A DNA stretch of 64,000 nucleotides from positions 4,482-68,481 of the IMG/VR virus record IMGVR_UViG_3300033141_002294; one strand, given 5' to 3'. The first letter of the stretch is position 1, and each line of letters opens with the position of its first letter. The notes beneath the pieces are model-generated. The model was given only the letters and a program-made list of their open reading frames with translations. It made no database searches and was not told the origin of the DNA. Positions 9,896 through 61,830 of this stretch are shown in pieces. Made by a program: the position numbers and the translations under genes. The stretch comes from a virus.

Positions 9896-10765
9896 TTACT
9901 CCGGCACTACCAAACCCACTGAGCACCTGCACATCGGATGAGCCGTCGGCCCCGGCAATTGTATCCCTCTGACGTTATCCTGAAACATCCCACCTACGGG
10001 CTGTATCTGCCCGTCAAGCGCACGACAGATAGGGCAGACCCGGTCGTCCCTGGCGGCTATCCACTGCTGCATCGCATAGTTGGGAACCACGCCCTGCTCC
10101 TGTGCCTGCCTCCATGACTCCTGCGTTCCTTTCGCCTGGGCGTTGATGGTCTCTGTCCGTGCTATGCGCATCGCCCGTCGCCGGAGCATCTTGCGGCTGT
10201 AGGTGTCCGTCATGCGGTCGACCAGTTTGGCGGACCGATTGCCCTCAAGGGTAAGGCGTGTCCAGTAGTTGTGGACCGCTTTTGCCTCGCGCTCCGTCAG
10301 GCCGATGATTTCCCTGATGCGCTGGCCCATGCGGTAGGGAGGGTCACCACGGCGGAAGGCATCCTCGATGATACGCCTGATGCCCGCACGGGTGTTGTCG
10401 TACACCTCGGCGACCAGTTCCGCCCCGTGCTGCCGTATCCACTCCTCGGCGTAGGGGTTGCGCAGACCGAAGTTCAGGGTTATTCGCAGCTGCTCGGCCT
10501 CTTTGTAGGCAGAACGGAAGAATATCTCCCGCAAGATGCGGCCCCAACCGCGTTCTGCGGCCTCCCTGGACCGTTCCCACGCCATGGATTCAAGCACGAA
10601 GTGGGGGGCCCCGACCTGCACGGCCATAACGGCGGCCTCTTCGGAGACGGACTCCTTGAGCTTCGCCGTGCTGTCGTTGAACATCTGAACCCACCTGCCC
10701 AAATCTTTGTTGCTTGGGCGGGTGGGTTGCTTGCGACTCGGGGCCTTGATTACCAGTCGCTTCAT
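9896..10765 (-). CDS. head morphogenesis protein (Mu gpF / SPP1 gp7 family)
   Basis: RAMRIARTET, WIAARDDRVCPICRALDG and HPMCRC motifs; follows portal. Confidence 0.9.
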   Translation of the reverse strand: MKRLVIKAPSRKQPTRPSNKDLGRWVQMFNDSTAKLKESVSEEAAVMAVQVGAPHFVLESMAWERSREAAERGWGRILREIFFRSAYKEAEQLRITLNFGLRNPYAEEWIRQHGAELVAEVYDNTRAGIRRIIEDAFRRGDPPYRMGQRIREIIGLTEREAKAVHNYWTRLTLEGNRSAKLVDRMTDTYSRKMLRRRAMRIARTETINAQAKGTQESWRQAQEQGVVPNYAMQQWIAARDDRVCPICRALDGQIQPVGGMFQDNVRGIQLPGPTAHPMCRCSVGLVVPE

Positions 10766-12060
10766 AGCTCGTCCGCCTGCTCCTTGATTTGAGGCAGGCC
10801 CATGCGCTGGAGGACTGCATTCGTGATTTCCTCGTTCGGGAACAGCACCGCCCCGGCACCGCTCAGGGCAGTAATCATCTTGGCGATCTCCTCAAGCGGC
10901 ATCTGCTCCAGGTCACCGTGTGTAATCTCCGGCATGGTCTCGGGTTGCATGCCGTTATAGGCCAGGAGCTTGGGCACGGCGTGGCGGTTTATCTGTGCCG
11001 CGATGTGGTCGAGGTAGGCGTTTGTGGCGGTGGCGAACAGGTTGGTCTTTGAGGATGCCAGAGCAAACGAGCCGACCTTCTCCATGCCCAAGAATAGGAA
11101 CTCGGCCAGGGCGGTCATGGCGGTCCGCTGCTCATACCGAGTGATGATGGCGTTGGTGTCGAACTGTCTGGTGCCTCCGGTGGAGAGGAGGCGGAGCTTG
11201 AACCCGGTTTTGATGACGTTGCCGGCGGAATCGGAGATTTCCTCACATGGGACGACCAGACCCTCACGCTCATCGCGCTTGATTTCGGCCATCGCTGTCT
11301 TGAACGCCTCATACTGGGCTTTCTCATCGGTGTTGGCCGAAGGCAGTGTAATATGGGGCGGCACCTCCAGCACGGGCAACCCAGCCAGATCACGCTCTAC
11401 GCCGATAGCCTCAATCTCCTGGATCCGCTTCGTGAAATACCACGGCCTGAATGCATTGCGCAGAATAGACCGACCCTCAGGATTGCCCAGCATCTCCTTG
11501 GTGCGGAAAAGCAACAGCTTTTCTATTGGAATGAGCACTTCCGGCCCACCCGTCGGGTCCTGCTGGTACATGCCCTTCAGTTCGTTGTTGTCGTCAAACT
11601 CCCAGCCGGTGACCGTCTCGGGCGACCGTATCTCTAGCTTGCGCCAGCCGATACGCCCGTCAGTGTACCGGGAGTTTCGGGTCGGGTCCTTGGACTCACC
11701 GGCCCGCTGCTTGTAGCACAGTTCAAACGGCGCGAACCCAAACGGCAGCATCGACCCGAATATCTCTCCGATGAACGACGGCCAGGTATGGGACATATCG
11801 TCCATACACGAGGCGACGAACTCAGCCGCCTCCACACTGCCCTGGTCCGCATCCTCACCTGCGGAAACCTCCCACTCGACGCCTCGGCAGAGCATCTCCG
11901 TAACGAGGATGATAGCGCCAATGATGGGATCGTTGTCCCGCATCTCCTTGTAAACCCGGATGCCATTCGTACCCTTCAGTGTGTTGTGCATCTCCTGGTC
12001 TATGATTCTGCCATAGCGGGGCAGGCCGGTTCTGCCATATACTCTATACTGCTGGGCCAT
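10762..12060 (-). CDS. portal protein (Mu gp29/DUF935-like)
   Basis: GNPEGRSILR, EAIGVERDLAGLP and GSFALA motifs; follows terminase. Confidence 0.9.
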   Translation of the reverse strand: MAQQYRVYGRTGLPRYGRIIDQEMHNTLKGTNGIRVYKEMRDNDPIIGAIILVTEMLCRGVEWEVSAGEDADQGSVEAAEFVASCMDDMSHTWPSFIGEIFGSMLPFGFAPFELCYKQRAGESKDPTRNSRYTDGRIGWRKLEIRSPETVTGWEFDDNNELKGMYQQDPTGGPEVLIPIEKLLLFRTKEMLGNPEGRSILRNAFRPWYFTKRIQEIEAIGVERDLAGLPVLEVPPHITLPSANTDEKAQYEAFKTAMAEIKRDEREGLVVPCEEISDSAGNVIKTGFKLRLLSTGGTRQFDTNAIITRYEQRTAMTALAEFLFLGMEKVGSFALASSKTNLFATATNAYLDHIAAQINRHAVPKLLAYNGMQPETMPEITHGDLEQMPLEEIAKMITALSGAGAVLFPNEEITNAVLQRMGLPQIKEQADEL

Positions 12061-12064
12061 CTAA

Positions 12065-13510
12065 TCACACCTTCCAGGGAGAGCGGCGCTTGCCCCATTC
12101 ATCCGGTCGCCATTCAGTCTTGCGGGCTTTACTCTGCTCCAGCCTGAGCAGTGCCTGACTCATGGCATCGACCTGGTCGTCCGTTGCGGCGTTGGGAAAA
12201 GCGGTGGCCTCACTCAAAAAATCATTAATCCAGGCAGCCCGTCTGGGCAGATACACATTGCCCGACTGTACATAGGGAGCTACTGCAGCAGCCCGCGCCT
12301 CTTTTCCGCCCTGTGGCTGAACCGGGACTAGTCCGGCTATCTGTCGCCGCAGAGTAGCGATGACCGCCGGACCGTTTGCCTGGTCCTCAACGAGTTTGAG
12401 GCGGGCCTTCGGCCAGCGGTTGCTCATCGCAACTACCGACAGGATGGTGGCGGGAAAATTCATGCGCTGGCGCACCTGATCCAGTAGGTAGAAGTCGGCG
12501 TCCCTGCGGCCCCAGGCCTGACCTACCACGTAGGAGCCCTCCTGCGTGTTCTTGAATGCCATGTCCCAGGATTGAACGACCTCATCCAGGTCAACCGGGG
12601 CATCGTCGTACCATTGCCACCAGTCGCGGTGGAAGATATTGCCCTCGGGTGGGGCGGGACGTTGCTGGTACAGTGCAGACCATACATAGGGTCCAACCGC
12701 TTGCTTGATGCGCTCCAGTTGGTCTGTATCGAATCGCTCAGGCCACAAAGGCTCTCCGGGCTCGCGACCCAATTGGTCGTTATCCTCCGCCAGAGCAGGG
12801 AGGGTGATTCGCGTCCACCTGTCGCCGCCCGCCTTCTCTTCCTCGATGAGCCGTCCTGCGAGGTCGTCCTCATGCCAGCGGGTCATGATGAGGATAATGG
12901 CCCCGCCGGGCTCCAGGCGCGTGTATAGTGTGGACTGGTACCAGTCCCATTGTTTGTCCCGGATAACCTGTGATTGGGCCTCTTCTTGGTTCTTCAGCGG
13001 GTCGTCTATAATGGCGATGTCTGCTCCGCGGCCCGTGATGGGACCGCCTACGCCGACGGCTACCATGCCGCCGTCATGTCCCTTTAGGTCCCACCTGTCT
13101 GCCGCTGAGGAGTCATCCGCTACATCAACACCGAAGAGGAGGGGACCAGTTTGCTCCAGCAGGTCGCGGGCCTTGCGTCCAAAGCCTCGGGCGAGATCGG
13201 AGCCATAGGACGCCAGGATAATCCGGTTGTCGGGAAAGTTCCCCAACGCCCAGGCGGGGAAGTATTTACTTGTAAACTCGCTCTTGCCGTGCCGGGGAGG
13301 CATCTGGATCATCAATCGCAGGATGCGTTTGGCGGCTACGTCGGCGAGGGCGTCACTCAGGCGTAGCAGGTGTCTCGCAGGTATCCATCTGCGGTTGCTC
13401 GCCAGCCATGCGTACCCCGCCGGTAGCCCCAGCAAGGCGCTCGAATAGCTGATTGGCAGTAGCTCGGGCGTCTGGGTTGTTGATGATTTCCTGCCGGATG
13501 TCATACTCAT
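12065..13510 (-). CDS. terL: terminase large subunit
   Basis: MPPRHGKS (Walker A), ITGRGAD, IIDDP, LYQQRP, SWDMA and DDQVDA motifs. The true start may lie downstream of 13510. Confidence 0.95.
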   Translation of the reverse strand: MSMTSGRKSSTTQTPELLPISYSSALLGLPAGYAWLASNRRWIPARHLLRLSDALADVAAKRILRLMIQMPPRHGKSEFTSKYFPAWALGNFPDNRIILASYGSDLARGFGRKARDLLEQTGPLLFGVDVADDSSAADRWDLKGHDGGMVAVGVGGPITGRGADIAIIDDPLKNQEEAQSQVIRDKQWDWYQSTLYTRLEPGGAIILIMTRWHEDDLAGRLIEEEKAGGDRWTRITLPALAEDNDQLGREPGEPLWPERFDTDQLERIKQAVGPYVWSALYQQRPAPPEGNIFHRDWWQWYDDAPVDLDEVVQSWDMAFKNTQEGSYVVGQAWGRRDADFYLLDQVRQRMNFPATILSVVAMSNRWPKARLKLVEDQANGPAVIATLRRQIAGLVPVQPQGGKEARAAAVAPYVQSGNVYLPRRAAWINDFLSEATAFPNAATDDQVDAMSQALLRLEQSKARKTEWRPDEWGKRRSPWKV

Positions 13511-13976
13511 GCCGGGTTGTCACCTCGCCGGATTGCTGTTGATGCGCCGTGGGTTTGCCTGTGAGCAGTTGATGTTTCTCGACCGATTGAGCAAGGACGC
13601 CGACCACAGACCGAAGGAACAGGCCGCGAGGCTCCTTTTCCTTCGGCCCTTCCTCCATCAGTTGAGCGGCCACTTCGATAGCCTGAGAGCTAAGAGCAAG
13701 GAGGCGGGATGCAACGGCCTTGGCCTCGTCTGCCAGAGCGTTACTTGCTTTTTCAACGGCGCGGGTCACTACCTGTTCACTGACGGCCTTTAGTTTTTTA
13801 GAAGGCCGTTTGTTTGCTGTTTGTTTGTTTGTTTGTTCGCTCTGCTTGGCACACCAGCTGGCCACGGTGCCGAAGGGTATTCCCAACGCGTTTGCAGCTT
13901 CTCTAACGGACATTGTCTGACGCAGGGCAAGCGCTTTGACGCGGTCCTCTTCTGTGTACCGACGCCGCCCACCCAT
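13353..13976 (-). CDS. terS: terminase small subunit (N-terminal HTH)
   Basis: RYTEEDRVKAL..SVREAANALGIPFGTVASW HTH; GGAGTG RBS; directly upstream of terL. Confidence 0.75.
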   Translation of the reverse strand: MGGRRRYTEEDRVKALALRQTMSVREAANALGIPFGTVASWCAKQSEQTNKQTANKRPSKKLKAVSEQVVTRAVEKASNALADEAKAVASRLLALSSQAIEVAAQLMEEGPKEKEPRGLFLRSVVGVLAQSVEKHQLLTGKPTAHQQQSGEVTTRHEYDIRQEIINNPDARATANQLFERLAGATGGVRMAGEQPQMDTCETPATPE

Positions 13977-13993
13977 GTCTATCACTCCAAATG

Positions 13994-14020
13994 AAAAGAC
14001 CACACCTCTCGATGTGGCCT
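13994..14020 (-). terminator. intrinsic terminator between tRNA cluster and terS
   Basis: Minus strand GGCCACATC-GAGA-GGTGTGGTC followed by TTTTCATTT. Confidence 0.6.
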
Positions 14021-14035
14021 GGCTTTGAAATTTGA

Positions 14036-14121
14036 TGGGCCGGGCGGGGTTTGCACCCGCATCTCCGGGCTCCTCGCCCGGTGCTCTCAGAGTCGCCTCC
14101 ACTAAGTTGAGCTACCGGCCC
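14036..14121 (-). tRNA. atypical tRNA-like gene (anticodon position AGG, expanded D-loop)
   Basis: Acceptor GGGCCGG/CCGGCCC, D stem GCTC/GAGC, anticodon stem CCGGG/CCCGG with loop CGAGGAG, T arm GCGGG-TGCAAAC-CCCGC. Confidence 0.65.
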
Positions 14122-14130
14122 TTGTTACCA

Positions 14131-14295
14131 CTGATAGCAGTCACGGCCCCAAACCGACCCTTCGCGCCTGACCCCAACCGCTTGCGGGTTACCCCCGGCC
14201 GCCCACGCCCCTAGCCGGTCTCCCGGTCCCTCCCGGAAGTAGATTCCGGGGCTTCGGCGGCGTGGACGGCGTCATTCTCAACGCTGGGCCATCAG
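14131..14295 (-). ncRNA. putative multi-stem structured ncRNA
   Basis: Nested helices CTGATGGC/GCTATCAG, TGAC/GTCA and GCCGTCCACGCC/GGCGTGGGCGGC; hairpins CCGG-GAGA-CCGG and CCCGGAA..TTCCGGG; no credible ORF. Confidence 0.55.
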
Positions 14296-14414
14296 TAGCC
14301 GTACCACCAATCAACGAGTCGTTCACCAACCCAGCAGCCGGCGATGGCTACCAGGGGTAACACGACTATATAAAAGACAATGTTGATTATAGCCTTGAAG
14401 ACAATCTCGGCCAA
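14292..14414 (-). CDS. 40-aa single-TM peptide
   Basis: GGAGGGGG RBS, TTG start, (M)AEIVFKAIINIVFYIVVLPLVAIAGCWVGERLVDWWYGY; too short for the ORF track. Confidence 0.5.
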   Translation of the reverse strand: MAEIVFKAIINIVFYIVVLPLVAIAGCWVGERLVDWWYGY

Positions 14415-14430: not shown

Positions 14431-14504
14431 TGGCTGGGGCGGCAGGACTCGAACCTACGCTAGCGGGTTCAAAACCCGCTGTCTTACCACTTGACTACGC
14501 CCCA
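14431..14504 (-). tRNA. tRNA-Gln(UUG)
   Basis: TGGGGCG acceptor stem, anticodon loop TTTTGAA, GGTTCGAGTCC T arm, encoded CCA. Confidence 0.92.
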
Positions 14505-14623
14505 AACAGCACCTGAAGAACAAATAGTGCGATGAATCCACATATGGCTACTATGATTATGCCAAAGCCAAAACCCAACCCCGCCATATCCATAGCCTCA
14601 TCGTACTCATCCCATTCCGACAT
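14495..14623 (-). CDS. 42-aa single-TM peptide whose stop codon lies inside the tRNA-Gln gene
   Basis: GAGAGG RBS; MSEWDEYDEAMDMAGLGFGFGIIIVAICGFIALFVLQVLFGA. Confidence 0.45.
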   Translation of the reverse strand: MSEWDEYDEAMDMAGLGFGFGIIIVAICGFIALFVLQVLFGA

Positions 14624-14713: not shown

Positions 14714-15181
14714 TTAATACCCGGCTGGCGTCAGCCCCAGTTCGGCAATGAATCGGCACAGAGCCCCCACTTCCTTGCGCCACAATGTGCTCTTTCCCGC
14801 CATGAGGGGTTTGACCTGTTCACCATTTATCTCCACCGCAAACATGTCTGCTGTTTCCACTATCGTATCCAGACTCAAACCTTCCGGCCCGTATCTCAAC
14901 CGGAGCAGCAGTTCCTGGTCCGGTTCCAGCCGTTTGACCGCTCTCTCCACATCAGCTACCCGCACCTGTAACGACACGTTGCGGCAGACCCTATTCGCCA
15001 TCGCCGACCCCCCGGCATTGTTTCCGAGGGGTAGCTGCATAATGTCCCCGCAGGCCGGGTAGCCATCCCATTCAGTCAACTGCATGACGGTGTAGTAGAG
15101 GCGCAACTTGCTACGGGCCTCGGCGTAGGTCATTTTACCCCAGTGGCGAGATATCGTACTACTAGCCACGCTGGTACCCAT
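14714..15181 (-). CDS. putative late-gene transcriptional activator (ArpU/RinA-like, sigma region 4 HTH)
   Basis: VERAVKRLEPDQELLLRLRY motif; last early gene before tRNAs and terminase. Confidence 0.6.
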   Translation of the reverse strand: MGTSVASSTISRHWGKMTYAEARSKLRLYYTVMQLTEWDGYPACGDIMQLPLGNNAGGSAMANRVCRNVSLQVRVADVERAVKRLEPDQELLLRLRYGPEGLSLDTIVETADMFAVEINGEQVKPLMAGKSTLWRKEVGALCRFIAELGLTPAGY

Positions 15182-18913: not shown

Positions 18914-19413
18914 TCGATTTCACCCCACGCCGCACTGTATTCTGAACCGGCCAGGAGCTTCGCCGCCCCGCTCATCTGCTTCAGTCGTAGGAGCTCTTCC
19001 ACGCTCATGCCCAAGTGTTCGGCGATCCGCTCGTCCTCCCAACCCTTTTCGTAGAGCGACCGGACCAACTCCGACATCAGGTCCACCTGGTGTTTGCCCC
19101 GTGCCCGGTTGTGTCTGATGGTCGCGGCCATTCTCTGTTTGATGTCCTTGGCAATGACAACCACCGGGATTTCAGAACACTTGAAGTGGTTGACCAGCAG
19201 GGCGTAGCGATGGAACCCGTCAACCACAATGTACCTGCCCAGGTCCGGGTCATGGCAGACTACAATGGGTTGCGTGAGCCCGTCCTCTTCGATGCTCAGA
19301 CGAAGCAGTTCCATCTCCGGTGTCGCAACCTTGTTCGGGTTGTAGTCGTTCGCCTGGACCTTCTCGGCGGGAACCATCTGCACTTCGAGGCATGGGAATG
19401 TGATGTCAGGCAA
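18910..19413 (-). CDS. IbrB/YbdM-like ParB/Srx-domain protein
   Basis: ANDYNPNKVA, SIEEDGLTQPIV, IVVDGFHRY, ATIRHNRARGKH and a C-terminal HTH. Confidence 0.9.
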   Translation of the reverse strand: MPDITFPCLEVQMVPAEKVQANDYNPNKVATPEMELLRLSIEEDGLTQPIVVCHDPDLGRYIVVDGFHRYALLVNHFKCSEIPVVVIAKDIKQRMAATIRHNRARGKHQVDLMSELVRSLYEKGWEDERIAEHLGMSVEELLRLKQMSGAAKLLAGSEYSAAWGEIE

Positions 19414-20128
19414 AGTTCTTCACCTCCGGCACCCTGTTTGCCAACTGGCCATAGAGTTCCGGGTAGTACCGCTTCAGCCAGACGTACCTGCCGTACTCCC
19501 GGTTGGTCTCCCCGGCCCAGTAGCTCACTCGTAGTTCCTCCCGTGGGGCGATTGCCGTCTTATCATAGGCGGGGTGGTAGGGAATTCGGTGATGGTCGAT
19601 GTATACCCATACGTCCGCCTGCCTCCACCAGAGCATCGGCCACCCCTCCCACATCCCGTATTGCCTGGCCCAAAACAGGCTACCGTAGTGTGCCCCGCCC
19701 AGCCGCCTCCCCCGACTCTCTTCCGCCCGAATGCCGATTAGTCCTCCGTCATAGCCCTCGGCCACCAGTTGCCTCACCGGGTCATAGACTGTCGCCCTCA
19801 TCGTGCGCTCTTCAATGCGAGGGTCATCCAGGCCGTACTCGGCCAGCACGTCAAGAATGGGCCTGGTCCTGACCACTCGGAAGTTGATGTCCCACTCGGC
19901 CACCAGCCGCTGCATGTACTCCCATCCGTCCGGCAGGCAACTGTCGGCGTCGAGGTAGATGACCTCGATATCCGGCCTGATCTGGCGTGCAAACCACAAC
20001 ATCAATGTGCTGTCCTTCCCGCCCGACCATGCGAGGTATGGTCTCCGACACCGCGCCAGAAAGTCGCGGATCACCTGTTTTGTGGGTTCTCCCCGGACGC
20101 GCTCAATCCTCCTGGCTAGTGCGTCCAT
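19406..20128 (-). CDS. cysH: CysH-like PAPS-reductase family protein (type IV-B associated)
   Basis: AWSGGKDS PP-loop, GIRAEES..R, PMLWW..DVW.YI..IPYHPAYD; directly after csf3. Confidence 0.85.
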   Translation of the reverse strand: MDALARRIERVRGEPTKQVIRDFLARCRRPYLAWSGGKDSTLMLWFARQIRPDIEVIYLDADSCLPDGWEYMQRLVAEWDINFRVVRTRPILDVLAEYGLDDPRIEERTMRATVYDPVRQLVAEGYDGGLIGIRAEESRGRRLGGAHYGSLFWARQYGMWEGWPMLWWRQADVWVYIDHHRIPYHPAYDKTAIAPREELRVSYWAGETNREYGRYVWLKRYYPELYGQLANRVPEVKNFA

Positions 20129-20843
20129 GGAGTGCCTCCGCAGTCGGCAGGATGCATCGCGCCGCGTTCTCGGGATGCCAGTAGGGCGGCCTGATGCCCG
20201 CGATGTGTGGGCCGTCCGTCTGTGGGATGGCGCGCATCGGTTTGCCGGCGGAATCATGGCAAGACAGGTCCTCCGGCCAGGGTTCTACGCGCCATTCGGC
20301 AACCATCCCGTAGCCCATGCCGGTTTTCTTGCCTACCCCGATGATGGTATCCAGCAGGCTCCTGAGTTTGTCACCATTGCCCACGGCATACCATGTGAGT
20401 TCAGGCGTCACTAGGTACACTATCGGCATCCGGTACTCTTTGTAATACCCGCTGGAGGTTGGTACTCTGCCCCGGCGGCCGTCGAAGTCGACCCTCCTGG
20501 TAGCCTCGTCGACGTTGAATCGCTTATGCCAGTACGCTATGTGCTCTCCGTGCAACTCATACTGGGCGAATGAGCAGGCCCAGTACCATTCGCCGTCGGT
20601 CTCCCGGCGCTCCAGGGGCAGGGTGGGATGGAACAGGATGGCTCCCCCACACCGCCCCGCGGGGTTGTTGTAATACAGGTCCGGCCTGTGCCTGCGCATC
20701 CAGGCCGCGGCAATGATGCTGTCCAGGGGCAGGCGGCCATCGGTTGTGGCCACCTGCCCGGTCTCCAGGACTGCGGTAATCCTAAGCGGCTGCAATGCCC
20801 AGTACCTCGCGGATGGCGTCGGCATTCTTGTAGATGTATGCAT
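20103..20843 (-). CDS. csf3: type IV CRISPR Cas5-like protein Csf3
   Basis: PLRITAVL, LPLDSII, WYWACS, SGYYKEYRMP, WYAVG, Gly-rich loop GVGKKTGMGYG, MRAIP and GIRPPYWH. Confidence 0.88.
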   Translation of the reverse strand: MHTSTRMPTPSARYWALQPLRITAVLETGQVATTDGRLPLDSIIAAAWMRRHRPDLYYNNPAGRCGGAILFHPTLPLERRETDGEWYWACSFAQYELHGEHIAYWHKRFNVDEATRRVDFDGRRGRVPTSSGYYKEYRMPIVYLVTPELTWYAVGNGDKLRSLLDTIIGVGKKTGMGYGMVAEWRVEPWPEDLSCHDSAGKPMRAIPQTDGPHIAGIRPPYWHPENAARCILPTAEALHGRTSQED

Positions 20844-21705
20844 CGTAGTTGGTCAGAGCCGTTATCTTCGGCGGTTCCAGCGTAACCCAGCCCTCTCTTA
20901 AGGTGACCGATGCCTCCCTGCCTTCTCCGGTGCCCTCCGCCCAGTCCGCCTCCACAAGGCCGAATCCCAGACGGCTCATGCCCCCTATGTACGGTTGCCT
21001 GTTAAACTCGCGCAGACAGGACACAAACGCCCCGAGTTCCAACTGGGTCACGTCCACAAGGTCGATCCGCTGGTACAGCCTCGCGCCCGCACTCAGCACC
21101 TCAACGGTGTACCGCATCTGCTGGGGCCGGTCATCCTGCTGCGAGGGTTGTTCGCTCTGCACCTCGGCCAGATGCTCTCGCAGCAGTTCGCTCTTGGCGT
21201 CGTCGGTGCGCGTGAACGACCGTTCCTCCGTCCACTGGCCCCACGACGGGGCATTTGCATCCCTGTATCGTTCGGGCAATACTCTCTGCGCCTCGCGCAC
21301 CAGCGGCCACATGGCTCCAACCTTCATCTTGCCGCTCATAATCTGATTGCCGACACCACCGCCGAACAAGCTGAGCAGAGGCAGGGTCTCTCTGTACCGC
21401 CGGGCTTGGTCAACGTCGACTACATGTTTGCCGCCGATGGACCCGCCGGAAAACAGCAGGTAGAACATGTCTAAGGGCAGGCGGGGATTGCCCAGTCGCT
21501 CTAGGAGATACTTGGCTCCCAGGTCCCTCAACTGGCCACGGAATGCGTTACCCGAATAGCTGAAGCACTTCGCTGGACGGCCGTCTAGTCCGATAATCTC
21601 CGACTCCGACAGGTACGCCTCCGGGCCGGCAATCTCCCCGATATGGCTTAACGGTGACAACAGGGTAATGATTCCCTCCAGGCGGTAGTTCTGTGTCTTA
21701 TTCAT
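20782..21705 (-). CDS. csf2: type IV CRISPR Cas7-like backbone protein Csf2
   Basis: LSPLSHIG, SGNAFRGQLRD, LFSGGSI, PLLSLFGG, SFTRTDD, QQMRY.VE and Gly-rich loop IGGMSRLGFG. Confidence 0.92.
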   Translation of the reverse strand: MNKTQNYRLEGIITLLSPLSHIGEIAGPEAYLSESEIIGLDGRPAKCFSYSGNAFRGQLRDLGAKYLLERLGNPRLPLDMFYLLFSGGSIGGKHVVDVDQARRYRETLPLLSLFGGGVGNQIMSGKMKVGAMWPLVREAQRVLPERYRDANAPSWGQWTEERSFTRTDDAKSELLREHLAEVQSEQPSQQDDRPQQMRYTVEVLSAGARLYQRIDLVDVTQLELGAFVSCLREFNRQPYIGGMSRLGFGLVEADWAEGTGEGREASVTLREGWVTLEPPKITALTNYDAYIYKNADAIREVLGIAAA

Positions 21706-22174
21706 CCGATGCATCCTCCCCCTCTTTGTTGGCCAGTGGTTCTAGCGGTTTTTCGCGCTCCAGCCTGTCTCTCACCAGAGCAATCACGTAGCTGGTTTTG
21801 CCATACAGCGCTTTGGTGACGGCCTCGGCGTCTGCACGGTCGATGATGTTGACCCAGAACTCCCTGCGGTTCTCCTGCCCAGGGCCTACCAGTTCACCAG
21901 TTTCCGGGTTCTTGGCCAGCGTCACCGTCTCCAGTTCACCGGTGGTCATGAATCGCGGTTTGATATTCGAGCACTGGACCTTGGGCTTCAGCCGTTCAAT
22001 GAACTCCGGCAGATCGGCACTCCTCTTCGCGGCTGATTTGACCGCCCGCTCGATCCGGCCCCACATTTCGGGGTTAACCTTGAACCGCCTGGTATCCCTC
22101 GACCGATACACTCCGTACACCAGCAACGCACCAACCGCCGCCGCACCATCATTGGTCGCGAATCCATAAATCAT
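21698..22174 (-). CDS. type IV-B small subunit (Cas11-like)
   Basis: 158 aa helical protein directly upstream of csf2 with C-terminal VIALVRDRLERE; position matches the IV-B small subunit. Confidence 0.7.
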   Translation of the reverse strand: MIYGFATNDGAAAVGALLVYGVYRSRDTRRFKVNPEMWGRIERAVKSAAKRSADLPEFIERLKPKVQCSNIKPRFMTTGELETVTLAKNPETGELVGPGQENRREFWVNIIDRADAEAVTKALYGKTSYVIALVRDRLEREKPLEPLANKEGEDASDE

Positions 22175-22467
22175 CTGGCATACCCCCTCTTACACCGCTT
22201 GCCGTGCAACGCCGACTCTTCACCGAACACCGTTGGAATGCTGGGCCAGGCACCTTCACCCTCAACTACCGGGATGTAGACCGATCGACTTTCATACCAC
22301 CCCGCATATACCGGTCGCCCTTTGGTATCGACATCTACCGGAGTGCCCTGATCCTGCATCATGGCCTGTAGGGCTCTGATTGCCTCCGCCGCCGATACCT
22401 GAGCCACCCTCTCTTGAAACCTCTTGACAGCATGAGGCGTGACGAAATACGGCTGATCAAACTGCAT
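22171..22467 (-). CDS. small protein with HAxxRxxER motif (RelE/DUF4258-like BECR fold?)
   Basis: YFVTPHAVKRFQER; inserted between csf1 and cas11. Confidence 0.5.
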   Translation of the reverse strand: MQFDQPYFVTPHAVKRFQERVAQVSAAEAIRALQAMMQDQGTPVDVDTKGRPVYAGWYESRSVYIPVVEGEGAWPSIPTVFGEESALHGKRCKRGYAR

Positions 22468-23122
22468 TTGCCCGCGCCTCCAGTTTCCGGGCCAGCAGGA
22501 GCGCAAGGTCAAACCGACGCCGGGAGAGACGCAGTTCATCCAGCCGGGACGACAGAGCCTCGAATCGGTCTAGGCCCATACGCCTGATGCGCGCCGACTG
22601 ATACCGGCCCGTCCGAACCTCCATCTTGGAGAAGGTCGCCAGCGCCTGTTCAATCTGTTCCACGTCGACCCGTAACTGTTCCGGCCGAAACTGCGTCAGC
22701 GTCTCCTCGACAGCGATCCACGGCGCTTCGTTGCTGACGTTTACACGTGTTTTGAATACCAGATGTTTGTGCCCGCTTACGGCGATTGTCCCGACCCACG
22801 GTGGCTCGGGAGGGGACACCAGAATGTCGCGCCACTCTGTGCGCAATGGATGGCGCAACTCCGTCCGAGTGGCCAGCACAGAGCGGGTTCGAAATGGTTT
22901 ATGTTTGAGGCAGAACACGCAAGCCGCGCAGATAGACTGCCCTCCGCCACGGGCGAAATCCGGGTCGTTGAACGTATGGCTCACAACGTCTTTGACCAAA
23001 CGGCCCCAGCCGTGTGTCGGCCCCGCGCACAGCCAGCAATGGGCATCCGGCACCTCGGCGACGGAAATGTCATCATACCCGCTCACCATCGCCGCCTGAT
23101 AGACCAGTGCTGTGGGCATCAT
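22457..23122 (-). CDS. csf1: type IV CRISPR large subunit Csf1 (Cas8-like)
   Basis: CWLC..TFND..ICAAC Zn finger, PPEPPW and SGHKHL.FK..VN motifs. Confidence 0.85.
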   Translation of the reverse strand: MMPTALVYQAAMVSGYDDISVAEVPDAHCWLCAGPTHGWGRLVKDVVSHTFNDPDFARGGGQSICAACVFCLKHKPFRTRSVLATRTELRHPLRTEWRDILVSPPEPPWVGTIAVSGHKHLVFKTRVNVSNEAPWIAVEETLTQFRPEQLRVDVEQIEQALATFSKMEVRTGRYQSARIRRMGLDRFEALSSRLDELRLSRRRFDLALLLARKLEARANAV

Positions 23123-24283: not shown

Positions 24284-25345
24284 TCATGTCACCCCCGCGA
24301 ATATCCGTTGTTGTTGCGTCTCCCGCTCTATCCGTCGCCGGGCCATCTGCACATACTCTGGATTAATCTCAATGCCAATACTATCGCGCCCGTACTGCTC
24401 GGCTACCAGCAAGGTTGTCCCCGCCCCACAGAAGGGGTCCAGGACAACGCACCTTCCCGAACCGTCGTTGTCGGGACAGATGCAGGTCGGTGCCCACTGG
24501 TTGGTCGGAGCGGTGGTCGGCCGCCAGTCGGTGCTGTCTGTCTTGGTCTTGGTATTGTGCGGCACATGGGCCGGTTCGCGCCCATTGCGGTGCCCAGTGC
24601 GCTCGACGACCCGTGCCCACGGCGCGCCGCAGATGGGACACGCACGGGGCGACGTCCCGGCGAGGATGCAACGGCGGGGCAGCTCGCGGGGAAATGTGGC
24701 GAAATGGGCCTCGGGGAATGGTTCGGTAGGGATAATCCAGACCGAACGGGCGTTGCGGCCAGCCGGGTGTAGGTGGTTGCTGCCCTCGTGGAGATTGCCT
24801 GAACCAACCCTGGGGACACCTACCGGGAGTCCCCGATACTTGGTCCGCCCTGTCTGGTGACCGCCCTGTGGCCAACGCACAGACGACTCCGGTTGGTGGG
24901 GTTCGCGAATAGCATCCGGGTCGTAGTAGTATTGCGGTTGCTGGCTGAGCAAGAAGATATACTCATGCGCTCCGCTGGGCCTGTCTTTTGTGCTCTCGGG
25001 TAAGGCGTTGTTTTTGTACCAGACGATGTCCCTGCGCCAATACCAGCCATCGTCCTGCAGGGCCAGGGCCACACGCGACGGGATGCCTACCAACCGTTTC
25101 CGCCGGTAGGTATCCCCGAGGTTGACCCACGCCGTACCATCCGGCCGCAGCACCCGCCGCACCTCCCGGAACACTTCAACCATGCGGGATACGTACTCCT
25201 GTGGCGTTTCCTCCAGCCCAATCTGTCCCGCCACTCCGTAGTCCCGTAGCCACCAGTAGGGCGGGGAGGTAACCACGCAATGGACCGATGCATCCTCCAG
25301 TTGGGCCAGTCCGTCCATGACGTCGGCGGTGATTATGCGGTACAT
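24284..25345 (-). CDS. N4-cytosine/N6-adenine DNA methyltransferase
   Basis: VTSPPY, HFATFP, VLDPFCGAGTT and GIEINPEY motifs. Confidence 0.92.
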   Translation of the reverse strand: MYRIITADVMDGLAQLEDASVHCVVTSPPYWWLRDYGVAGQIGLEETPQEYVSRMVEVFREVRRVLRPDGTAWVNLGDTYRRKRLVGIPSRVALALQDDGWYWRRDIVWYKNNALPESTKDRPSGAHEYIFLLSQQPQYYYDPDAIREPHQPESSVRWPQGGHQTGRTKYRGLPVGVPRVGSGNLHEGSNHLHPAGRNARSVWIIPTEPFPEAHFATFPRELPRRCILAGTSPRACPICGAPWARVVERTGHRNGREPAHVPHNTKTKTDSTDWRPTTAPTNQWAPTCICPDNDGSGRCVVLDPFCGAGTTLLVAEQYGRDSIGIEINPEYVQMARRRIERETQQQRIFAGVT

Positions 25346-35779: not shown

Positions 35780-36599
35780 TGTCGGCAACCTCCTCCGCCT
35801 GCTGGCGCAAGCGCATGTAGTCGGCCTCCTCGCGGGGCTCAAACACCGCAAACCTGCCGTCCACTGGCCCGACGGGCCAGTACCCCATCTGCCACACTTC
35901 CATGAGGGGCTCCCAGGGATTAGGGTGCGGAAGCCGGTCGGCCACGACGAGCCAGGCGGCACCCAGGGCGGCAGCCCGGGCGGCACCCCAGGCGGCAGCC
36001 CGGGCGGCCACGACGGGCCAGGCGACATCCCCGGCGACATCCCGGGCGGCATCCCAGGCGGCAGCCCGGGCGGCATCCCCGGCGGCATCCCAGGCGGCAT
36101 CCCCGGCGACAGCCCGGGATGAGACCCACTGTACAGGCACCGGCTGTGCGCCGTACGGCTCCAGCCGTCGCAGGTGCTCTGCGACCAGGGCCTCCACCCG
36201 CGCACGGTCGTGCGCCGGAGGCGCGAGCCAGGGATGCCCGGGCAGGGCCGCGATAAACTCCACCACCTGTTCCCCCTGCGGGCCGAACGCCTGGGCCAGC
36301 GGCAATTCCTCCTCGGCGCGGAGGCGGCGGACGCGCCATTTGTCGTCGCCCTCGATGATTATGTCCTCCAGGGCCGCCGACACCCGGAGCAACCGCAGCG
36401 GCCAGTGGTGGCCCCGGGACGCCAGGCCCGCCTGCTCCATGCGGGCGATGTGGAGGCCCGCCTTGCACAGTCCGGCCTCAGCGGGCGCGGGATTGGGGCA
36501 GGCCGCCTCCCGGCCTACCTCGTACTGCACCGTGCCGCTCCGGCAGTCGGTGTAGTCGTCCCGGACGATTTTGTACCCGGTGATGCGGTCGGTCATCAC
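35772..36599 (-). CDS. phage protein with Ala-rich AAWDAA repeat
   Basis: GYK..QYEVG..C..GLH..K.RVRRL N-terminal domain; 12-nt tandem repeat at about 35955-36118 encodes (AA(W/G/R)D)n. Confidence 0.7.
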
Positions 36600-43662: not shown

Positions 43663-44168
43663 CCGAGTTTGACCCCCTCTTCGAGTCCGTACTCACGGGC
43701 CATATGCACGAGGCAGTTGATGGCGGTGTAGACATCCCACACCTGTTCCATCAACTGTGAAACCTCCTCCATATCCAGCTCGCCCTTGTATATCTCATGG
43801 CAGAGTTTTGTGAGGACCGCCTGCACCTGCTCTGCCGATTCCTCCGCCTCCTCCACATAGCACGACCCGACCATCGCTGGGTGTCCATCGATCTGATTAG
43901 GCACCCAGCCGGTCGGGTACGGAGGGGGAGAGTCTTGGGGCGAGAGAACAAAATCGTGCTCGCTGCCGTCTTGCCCACTCATCCGAATGATAAGGGGCGA
44001 TTGCAAGGCACAGGCTATATCCATGAGTACGTTGAGTGACGGCGGTTTATGCCCGTTGGCTACTGCCCATATATGCTGTGACGACACTCCCGCCTTCCGG
44101 GCCAGCGCCCGCTGGGTAAGTTTGAGACGGGCCAGTGCGTCGGGGATGCCGACAATTTGTATATCCAT
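43599..44168 (-). CDS. Cro-like XRE HTH regulator
   Basis: LTQRALARKAGVSSQHIWAVANGHKPPSL; divergent from the repressor gene. Confidence 0.8.
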   Translation of the reverse strand: MDIQIVGIPDALARLKLTQRALARKAGVSSQHIWAVANGHKPPSLNVLMDIACALQSPLIIRMSGQDGSEHDFVLSPQDSPPPYPTGWVPNQIDGHPAMVGSCYVEEAEESAEQVQAVLTKLCHEIYKGELDMEEVSQLMEQVWDVYTAINCLVHMAREYGLEEGVKLGWERHFDKMIDQGMHDPDKVC

Positions 44169-61707: not shown

Positions 61708-61830
61708 GTAGCCGTCACTCCCTGTCTGTTCTCACCTCCCCTGGTGGCAACCCCGATACAAGGATGCGCCCCGGCAGGCGGTGGGGTAAAGCCGCTTTTC
61801 GCCGCGTCCGGCTATCCAGGGCGCAAGGGT

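Follow-up and report, generated by a model that had tools for sequence, protein, structure and literature searches.

A compact three-way-junction RNA retained upstream of the terminase operon in two related phages, with a possible role as an antitermination leader

In phage lambda, the PR'-tR' unit, on which Q operates, has a short leader with a terminator at its end, right in front of the late genes, whose expression needs read-through; Q acts via a DNA site at the promoter and not via a folded RNA. The lambda nut sites work by making RNA polymerase resistant to terminators, as do put, EAR and canT. Riboswitches and T-box leaders control their terminators in another manner, which needs an alternative pairing that overlaps the terminator itself. 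To our knowledge, RNA antiterminators are known from only a few elements, namely put, EAR, canT and conAn2. The put RNAs of HK022 (putL and putR) are protein-independent, cis-acting processive antiterminators that bind the beta' zinc-binding domain. They are described as RNAs of ~70 nt whose two stem-loops form a V with a triplex and which work irrespective of distance, on terminators as far as 10 kb off (PMC9378689). The RNAs canT of Tn916, EAR of B. subtilis and conAn2 of pLS20 are presented as cis-acting antiterminators of Gram-positive elements and operons; the active canT fragments measure 341-452 nt, with their structure unresolved, and conAn2 requires the protein ConAn1 (PMC11658703).

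The 73-nt core RNA that we describe here is like put in being a predicted structured RNA of similar length (~70 nt for put) in a phage leader upstream of a terminator, a likeness of position only, and unlike it in shape, put being by its description a V of two stem-loops (PMC9378689), whereas a 14-bp stem closes the three-way junction predicted for the core. Moreover, put lies just downstream of the early promoters of a lambdoid coliphage, and the core precedes a late operon in an uncultured phage whose TerL relatives are mostly Firmicute. With canT, conAn2 and EAR the likeness is one of proposed role, in which a structured RNA carries polymerase past an insulating terminator and thereby permits the expression of a long operon (PMC11658703); unlike a member of the EAR family, the core has no Rfam match to EAR. 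The lambda PR'-tR' unit shares with our locus a leader and a terminator ahead of the late genes and differs from it in that no Q-like protein was identified here. Riboswitch and T-box leaders also place a structured leader before an intrinsic terminator, but the core lies 88-177 nt away from its terminator and an insertion of ~100 nt is tolerated between the two. The core differs from put, EAR and canT in topology, size or setting, and its likeness to antiterminators is one of position and anatomy.

The window, by which we mean the whole stretch of 64,000 nt that was analysed, comprises bases 4482-68481 of a 68,481-bp IMG/VR virus record for which terminal repeats are on record. Firmicute metagenome bins are the main source of the nearest relatives of its TerL (63-65% identity). 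The phage is of a poorly studied lineage that probably infects Firmicutes. Other phage genes include an integrase, an SbcCD-like pair, several DNA methylases and two PAPS-reductase-like genes. The Rfam model of int-alpA RNA matches at 61751-61822 on the minus strand (48.7 bits against a gathering score of 35.8), and a tandem repeat of ~80% GC, which has a period of 12 nt and is organised in super-units of 66 nt, occupies 35927-36118, where listed ORFs overlap it.

Near the finding the minus strand carries all genes. Along that strand, a 155-aa orphan ORF with a sigma-70 region-4-like segment (15181..14714) is followed by an ORF for a 42-aa membrane peptide (14623..14495), a canonical tRNA-Gln(UUG) (14504..14434; 68.9 bits), which the related phage contig described below also has, and ORF2, which encodes a 40-aa single-helix membrane peptide (14414..14292; TTG start, stop codon 14294-14292). 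The final codons and stop of the 42-aa peptide ORF overlap the initial 10 nt of tRNA-Gln (14495-14504), an arrangement that is retained in the relative together with the peptide itself. Next come the reported element of 165 nt (14295..14131) and an aberrant tRNA-like gene (14121..14036), called by ARAGORN and scoring 47.1 bits with the Rfam tRNA model in the sensitive scan only. A terminator-like hairpin, detected in the terminator scan (14020..13997), precedes terS (13356..13976, ATG at 13976), which encodes a 207-aa protein of helix-turn-helix type and heads the packaging and structural operon with terL (13510..12065; PF03237 and PF17289) and the portal gene (12060..10762). The tRNA-like gene has perfect stems and non-canonical loops, with a 22-nt D-loop that contains a GCGA hairpin, an anticodon loop CGAGGAG without U33 and a T-loop UGCAAAC, and it is probably not a decoding tRNA. 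The placement of the element in a tRNA cluster, as it had been characterised, is loose: tRNA-Gln is separated from the element by 139 nt that include a small ORF, and the downstream tRNA-like gene is aberrant and missing in the relative.

A preliminary description made from the sequence had presented the 165 nt as one highly structured RNA, and its sequence and coordinates were as given there. Both the 12-bp stem GCCGUCCACGCC/GGCGUGGGCGGC and the GAGA tetraloop that it named were recovered in the minimum-energy fold. A second GNRA loop, GCAA, was not, as no tetraloop is found there in the predicted fold. Of the two alternative closing stems that had been drawn, AUGGCCC/GGGCCGU is unused in both the minimum-energy and the centroid fold, and CUGAUGGC/GCUAUCAG is present in the minimum-energy fold but is not conserved in the relative, where its 5' strand is replaced and its 3' strand takes another partner. 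Nor did the 165 nt as a whole stand out as highly structured: the minimum free energy (MFE) was -84 kcal/mol against -73.5 +/- 4.5 kcal/mol for shuffled sequences (z -2.36, with 5 of 200 shuffles equal), and the opposite strand gave a z of -1.71. Among 3192 native 165-nt windows, with energy regressed on GC, those overlapping the finding are no more than ~1.2-1.4 sd below the regression, and a stretch of 67-70% GC is not unusual here because the genome mean is 60% GC.

The ends of the element contribute little to its structure or to its conservation. Its 3' 59 nt are unstructured (z -0.32; 71/200 shuffles fold equally well). The variable 3' part (14131..14197) holds a small, partly conserved hairpin (14197-14185) and a conserved tail, (A/G)UCAGUG(G/A)UAACA; in the relative this part is largely different in sequence and carries a 9-nt insertion, which makes a partner for the conserved tail on the other side of the core. 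The 5' end (14282..14295) consists of the ORF2 stop codon and the window-specific 5' strand of the closing stem, and is unconserved. Conservation is confined to 14284..14196, and the boundaries first proposed for the element do not correspond to it; the real conserved unit is of ~89 nt, made of an 11-nt flank and the junction, and not of 165 nt.

The structural signal resides in the 73-nt core (14270..14198, minus strand), which emerged when the element was split and its parts were compared with shuffles, and which is predicted to form a three-way junction. Stem A has 12 bp, a 1-nt bulge and 2 bp (14270-14256 with 14211-14198), hairpin B has 7 bp and the loop UCUAC (14250-14232), and hairpin C has 6 bp with a bulged A and the loop GAGA (14229-14213); hairpins B and C stand 2 nt apart within the junction. 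The MFE of -47.3 kcal/mol compares with -33.2 +/- 3.2 kcal/mol for shuffles (z -4.44), none of the 200 being as good. Among 15,982 native 73-nt windows the core sits 3.2 sd below the regression, and 51 windows, some of them intragenic, are more extreme. Folds at least as strong as the core, with z of -4.85 to -5.08, were seen at 1001-1073, 43701-43773 and 24413-24485 (minus strand), at least two of which are inside ORFs of the ORF list. Because windows inside genes of this phage reach z ~-5, fold stability alone proves little, and on that basis the predicted core is a candidate and not a proven RNA.

The opposite strand of the core gave a z of -3.6. In both phages the sense strand gives the more stable fold, at -47.3 against -42.8 kcal/mol in the window and -42.0 against -38.1 kcal/mol in the relative, in keeping with G.U pairs that exist on the gene strand only and turn into A.C mismatches on its complement; their position differs between the two phages. 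The core is preceded by the flank UUGAGAAUGAC (14271..14281, minus strand), 11 nt predicted to be mostly single-stranded and unchanged at 11/11 positions in the relative, where the stretch upstream of this flank is replaced. A kissing interaction of the hairpin B loop with that of hairpin C was considered and rejected, being not conserved in the relative. The covariance model of the core found no second copy in the window.

The sole relative found is a 34,463-bp IMG/VR contig (L202/L205/L210), reached through the 155-aa protein, which is 97% identical. The window from 17692 to 14416 is 92.7% identical to this contig, and beyond that only two islands are retained, at 14284-14196 (87.8%) and 14020-13972 (93.9%). 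Between and around the islands, the relative has another 42-aa membrane peptide in place of ORF2, with an ATG start and the same ribosome-binding site, as well as an additional 63-aa ORF near the islands. It is without the tRNA-like gene (plus 15 further nt), which by this comparison is an insertion in the window. The portal, past the replaced terS and terL, is again 97% identical. The exchange of terS/terL is complete (window 12097-13972 against L210 7556-9344) between phages that are 92-97% identical on both flanks, and its borders fall at the terS start codon and close to the terL stop.

Folded alone, the relative's 74-nt copy of the core adopts the same three-way junction (MFE -42.0 kcal/mol, z -4.72, 0/200 shuffles as good). 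All 27 pairs form in both sequences (54/54 cells), and when partners are slid by 1-3 columns the paired fraction drops to 31.5-51.9%; this evidence of pair conservation comes from two rows, for the junction as for the terminator below, and the shuffle control then says nothing. The nine core substitutions are unevenly placed, with 2 in the 54 paired columns and 7 in the 19 unpaired ones (Fisher p 0.0008). Both of those in paired columns switch between C-G and U.G, and the unpaired ones affect the bulge, two junction positions, the bulged A and three of the four tetraloop positions (GAGA to ACAA). The relative's core also has one inserted A, which is a bulge in stem A, and this 1-nt indel argues against a reading frame across the conserved block. 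Hairpin B is uninformative on pairing because it is identical in both sequences, the loop UCUAC included, and in this alignment of two sequences no two-sided covariation was found in the junction. Judged from the two sequences, the junction fold is conserved, strand-specific and subject to structure-sparing substitutions. The fold, the strand and the indel together support for the core the original claim of a structured non-coding RNA, and one that is strand-specific; the collection of homologues that had been proposed as a check yielded one relative with the same fold, without two-sided covariation in the junction.

The second island contains the terminator. Its hairpin (14020..13997, minus strand) has 10 bp and a GAGA loop and is followed by UUUCAUUU (13996-13989), directly after which comes the terS ribosome-binding site GGAG (13988-13985). 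A terminator before terS had been noted previously, and it is borne out by the terminator scan, by z values of -3.2 in the window and -5.45 in the relative, and by its place in an island that is 94% conserved. Between the two phages the terminator stem shows one compensatory change from A-U to G-C and one from G.U to A-U, with 20/20 cells paired. As the U-run is broken up, a merely leaky terminator is also conceivable. From the terminator stem to the terS ATG there are 20 nt, which hold the U-run and the ribosome-binding site; no promoter fits after the terminator, so that transcripts reaching terS and its operon have to run first through the core and next through the terminator. ORF2 overlaps with a promoter-like TTGGCC-17-TATAAT (14414-14386), which is not conserved in the relative, and no conserved promoter for the leader was mapped.

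The distance from core to terminator is 177 nt in the window and 88 nt in the relative, the ~100-nt tRNA-like insertion being accommodated between them, and no conserved complement to either strand of the terminator was seen in the folds of both phages. This free spacing, together with the lack of an alternative pairing, fits a processive mechanism and not a competing-hairpin switch.

We hypothesise that the junction is a cis-acting leader RNA that aids transcription past the terminator abutting the terS ribosome-binding site, a reading suggested by this anatomy and to which we give a probability of roughly one in three (about 0.35). One leader transcript would span the region 14284..13972, and the nascent junction would render RNA polymerase resistant to the downstream terminator, presumed to be functional, with expression of the late genes as the outcome. 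The activity on polymerase is one that we infer from the arrangement of these parts; among the roles first listed for the element, late-operon antitermination is the one favoured by the anatomy, as a deduced and not a demonstrated role, and for the anti-defence decoy that was also listed the analysis gave no argument in either direction. Release by processing of the flanking tRNAs, which had also been suggested, is at odds with the relative, which keeps the core and is without the downstream tRNA-like gene. If antitermination is correct, the junction would be a switch made of RNA that governs the late operon, with its packaging and structural genes, in a phage of a poorly studied lineage, and a compact module of 73 nt for which two natural variants already mark positions that tolerate change.

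The junction could act alone or with a factor, and the obvious candidate for the latter would be the 155-aa sigma-region-4-like protein encoded just upstream. This protein gave a weak sigma-70 region-4 match (E 0.12). HMMER retrieved four proteins at E up to 0.001, itself included, among them a 127-aa homologue, its only small one; there was no match in 401 genomes (0/401), and a word-based search matched only the protein itself. Aligned with the 127-aa homologue, it displays what we read as a region-4-like pattern. Its AlphaFold model, with a mean pLDDT of 40.9, is too poor to test the likeness to region 4. Going by its sequence, the 155-aa protein is a possible candidate for a late-gene regulator and might be a partner of the junction RNA.

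Several other explanations have to be weighed against an antitermination leader. The structural conservation of the junction accords equally with a processing or stability element, such as an RNase III or RNase E site or a protective structure, or with a small stable RNA excised from the transcript that carries the tRNA, in either case with no effect on the terminator. The element lies beside tRNA-Gln and, in this phage, beside the tRNA-like gene, and the tRNA cluster of phage T4 also encodes two stable RNAs of unknown role. We nevertheless consider a role of this kind unlikely, as the tRNA-like gene that would set the 3' end is missing in the relative and the core is flanked by no promoter or terminator of its own; it would also leave unexplained that the core and the terminator are the sole conserved islands. 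These islands might have no function at all, being leftover linkers at the borders of exchanged cassettes, with a fold that is nothing other than a GC-rich palindrome of a kind also present elsewhere in this genome. In line with this, both islands flank the replaced ORF2, the tRNA-like insertion and the terS/terL cassette, intragenic windows reach z ~-5 and 51/15,982 native windows beat the core, and the core has no two-sided covariation. What makes us doubtful of such leftovers is that the substitutions avoid paired columns (p 0.0008), with stem changes only between C-G and U.G, and that the terminator has a true compensatory pair.

A site acting at the level of DNA, for instance one for packaging (pac) by TerS or an operator bound by the 155-aa regulator, would fit the nested palindromes and CCGG repeats, the position upstream of terS and the z of -3.6 on the opposite strand. 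It holds five CCGG sites in a span of 60 nt, a count that ties the window maximum; as a special DNA signal this cluster was rejected, another window locus having an equal count. Since the core is kept beside an unrelated terS/terL cassette in the relative, a TerS recognition site is unlikely, and G.U pairs, whose position differs in each phage, would be A.C mismatches in DNA, so that we regard a DNA site as very unlikely overall. The 73-nt length, a 12-bp helix reminiscent of stacked acceptor and T stems, and the adjoining tRNA genes could further suggest a strongly derived tRNA relic or mimic, and hairpin B, which is fully conserved, allows a drawing in which 5 bp support the 7-nt loop AUCUACU, giving U33 and a CUA anticodon. 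Yet ARAGORN and the Rfam tRNA model (E up to 10) were empty on the 165 nt, a D arm and a T loop are both lacking, and the strands do not follow a cloverleaf topology; such a relic seems to us highly improbable. Even less probable is that the array-less type IV-B Csf complex of this phage uses the RNA as its ligand or scaffold. The ligand role had been listed in the preliminary description, and it has a basis in Csf1, Csf2, Csf3 and a CysH-like protein being encoded 5-9 kb upstream with no array found in the window. This idea is disfavoured because the relative has ~2.3 kb of unrelated DNA in place of window 23071-19433, exactly the Csf cassette, with flanks that are 86-96% kept, and still retains the core with structure-sparing changes. 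Moreover, the Cas7 backbone holds a single-stranded guide, which counts against a fully paired junction as its ligand. Faintest of all is the chance that the junction is the long-sought natural RNA partner of an array-less type IV-B complex, the phage supplying Csf1-Cas11-Csf2-Csf3-CysH together with a dedicated RNA to be loaded, possibly in addition to a Csf-independent leader role.

The Csf genes themselves form a phage-borne, type IV-B-like CRISPR-Cas cassette at 19406-23122 on the minus strand, and no array was found in the window. It comprises csf1 (23122..22457; E 3e-16), followed by two small ORFs, one of them in the Cas11 position, then csf2 (21714..20782; E 1e-20), csf3 (20843..20103; E 4e-20) and the gene for the CysH-like PAPS reductase (20257..19406), all four assignments being below the curated cut-off. 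Searches for Csf2 and Csf3 in the relative's 34 kb returned no match, in a contig that covers only about half a genome, and the Csf3 search counts for little as it also matched no control genome.

We also compared the element with described kinds of RNA. For both strands of 14131-14295 Rfam 15 was without a match, whether the gathering score was applied or E values up to 10 were allowed, and the relative's copy had none either; the element had likewise not been recognised earlier as SRP, 6S, tmRNA or a ribozyme core. In the 165 nt no tRNA or tmRNA was called by ARAGORN (default, relaxed, or with introns allowed), and the Rfam tRNA model found none at E up to 10. A phi29-type pRNA was rejected, as there is no Rfam match and the UCU/AGA loop complementarity is lost in the relative (loop ACAA), and so was a crRNA or type IV Csf guide, there being no array in the window and the relative keeping the RNA without the Csf cassette. 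For an HDV-like ribozyme, a crude descriptor scan of 14460-13950 gave 39 raw candidates, and none of those printed (P2 of at least 5 bp) joins a sound P1 to P1.1; those within the core would all break the 12-bp stem. In the case of a hammerhead, the CUGAUG motif is within a helix and there is no Rfam match. A competing-hairpin attenuator is at variance with a core 88-177 nt from the terminator, with a variable spacer that takes a ~100-nt insertion and with the lack of such a pairing in either fold, and read-through of the ORF2 stop codon or a SECIS element with frames that differ between the phages and a 1-nt indel in the core. The element belongs to no described RNA family testable here.

Searches for further homologues covered phage genomes, IMG/VR and metagenome collections. 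With blastn in its 'distant' setting against 50,697 phage records the core was unmatched and a 751-nt query matched tRNA-Gln only, and a 3751-nt query against the same 50,697 records matched tRNA-Gln and gave one weak coding match. Neither nhmmer nor blastn-short found a homologue of the element among 160 TerL-related loci. The TerS query, whose first codon was an in-frame GTG placed 9 nt ahead of the ATG (the protein on record has 207 aa), matched nothing in IMG/VR and only itself among 5.8 billion proteins. A covariance model of the core gave only 3 matches, at E 3-9, among 168 loci and none in two sets of genomes (0/5 and 0/95); among 20 PAPS-reductase loci the relative alone matched.

The IMG/VR and metagenome collections were searched for the element by exact patterns only. 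In IMG/VR, one pattern gave 0 loci and another 8, of which only one (L165) has a tRNA, an ordinary one; two further patterns gave 3 loci (2 by chance and the relative) and 5 loci (4 unrelated iteron-like ones and the relative). An exact-pattern scan of the metagenomes gave 0 loci with a pattern whose end is one base off the relative's sequence and which is hence blind to such kin. The 32 loci of a second metagenome scan (L170-L201) were rejected as off-target, with group II introns in 6 of the 7 checked with Rfam. Within the tRNA-like gene, 21 nt that span its T arm and acceptor strand are identical to a hairpin of group II intron domain 1, which we take to be convergence of a stable T-loop-like hairpin. 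Furthermore, in a distantly related prophage region whose TerL is 56% identical (L089), a 79-nt tRNA-like sequence (2807-2885), called by ARAGORN and not by the Rfam tRNA model and with the T-loop UGCGAAU, lies between a terminator-like hairpin and terS.
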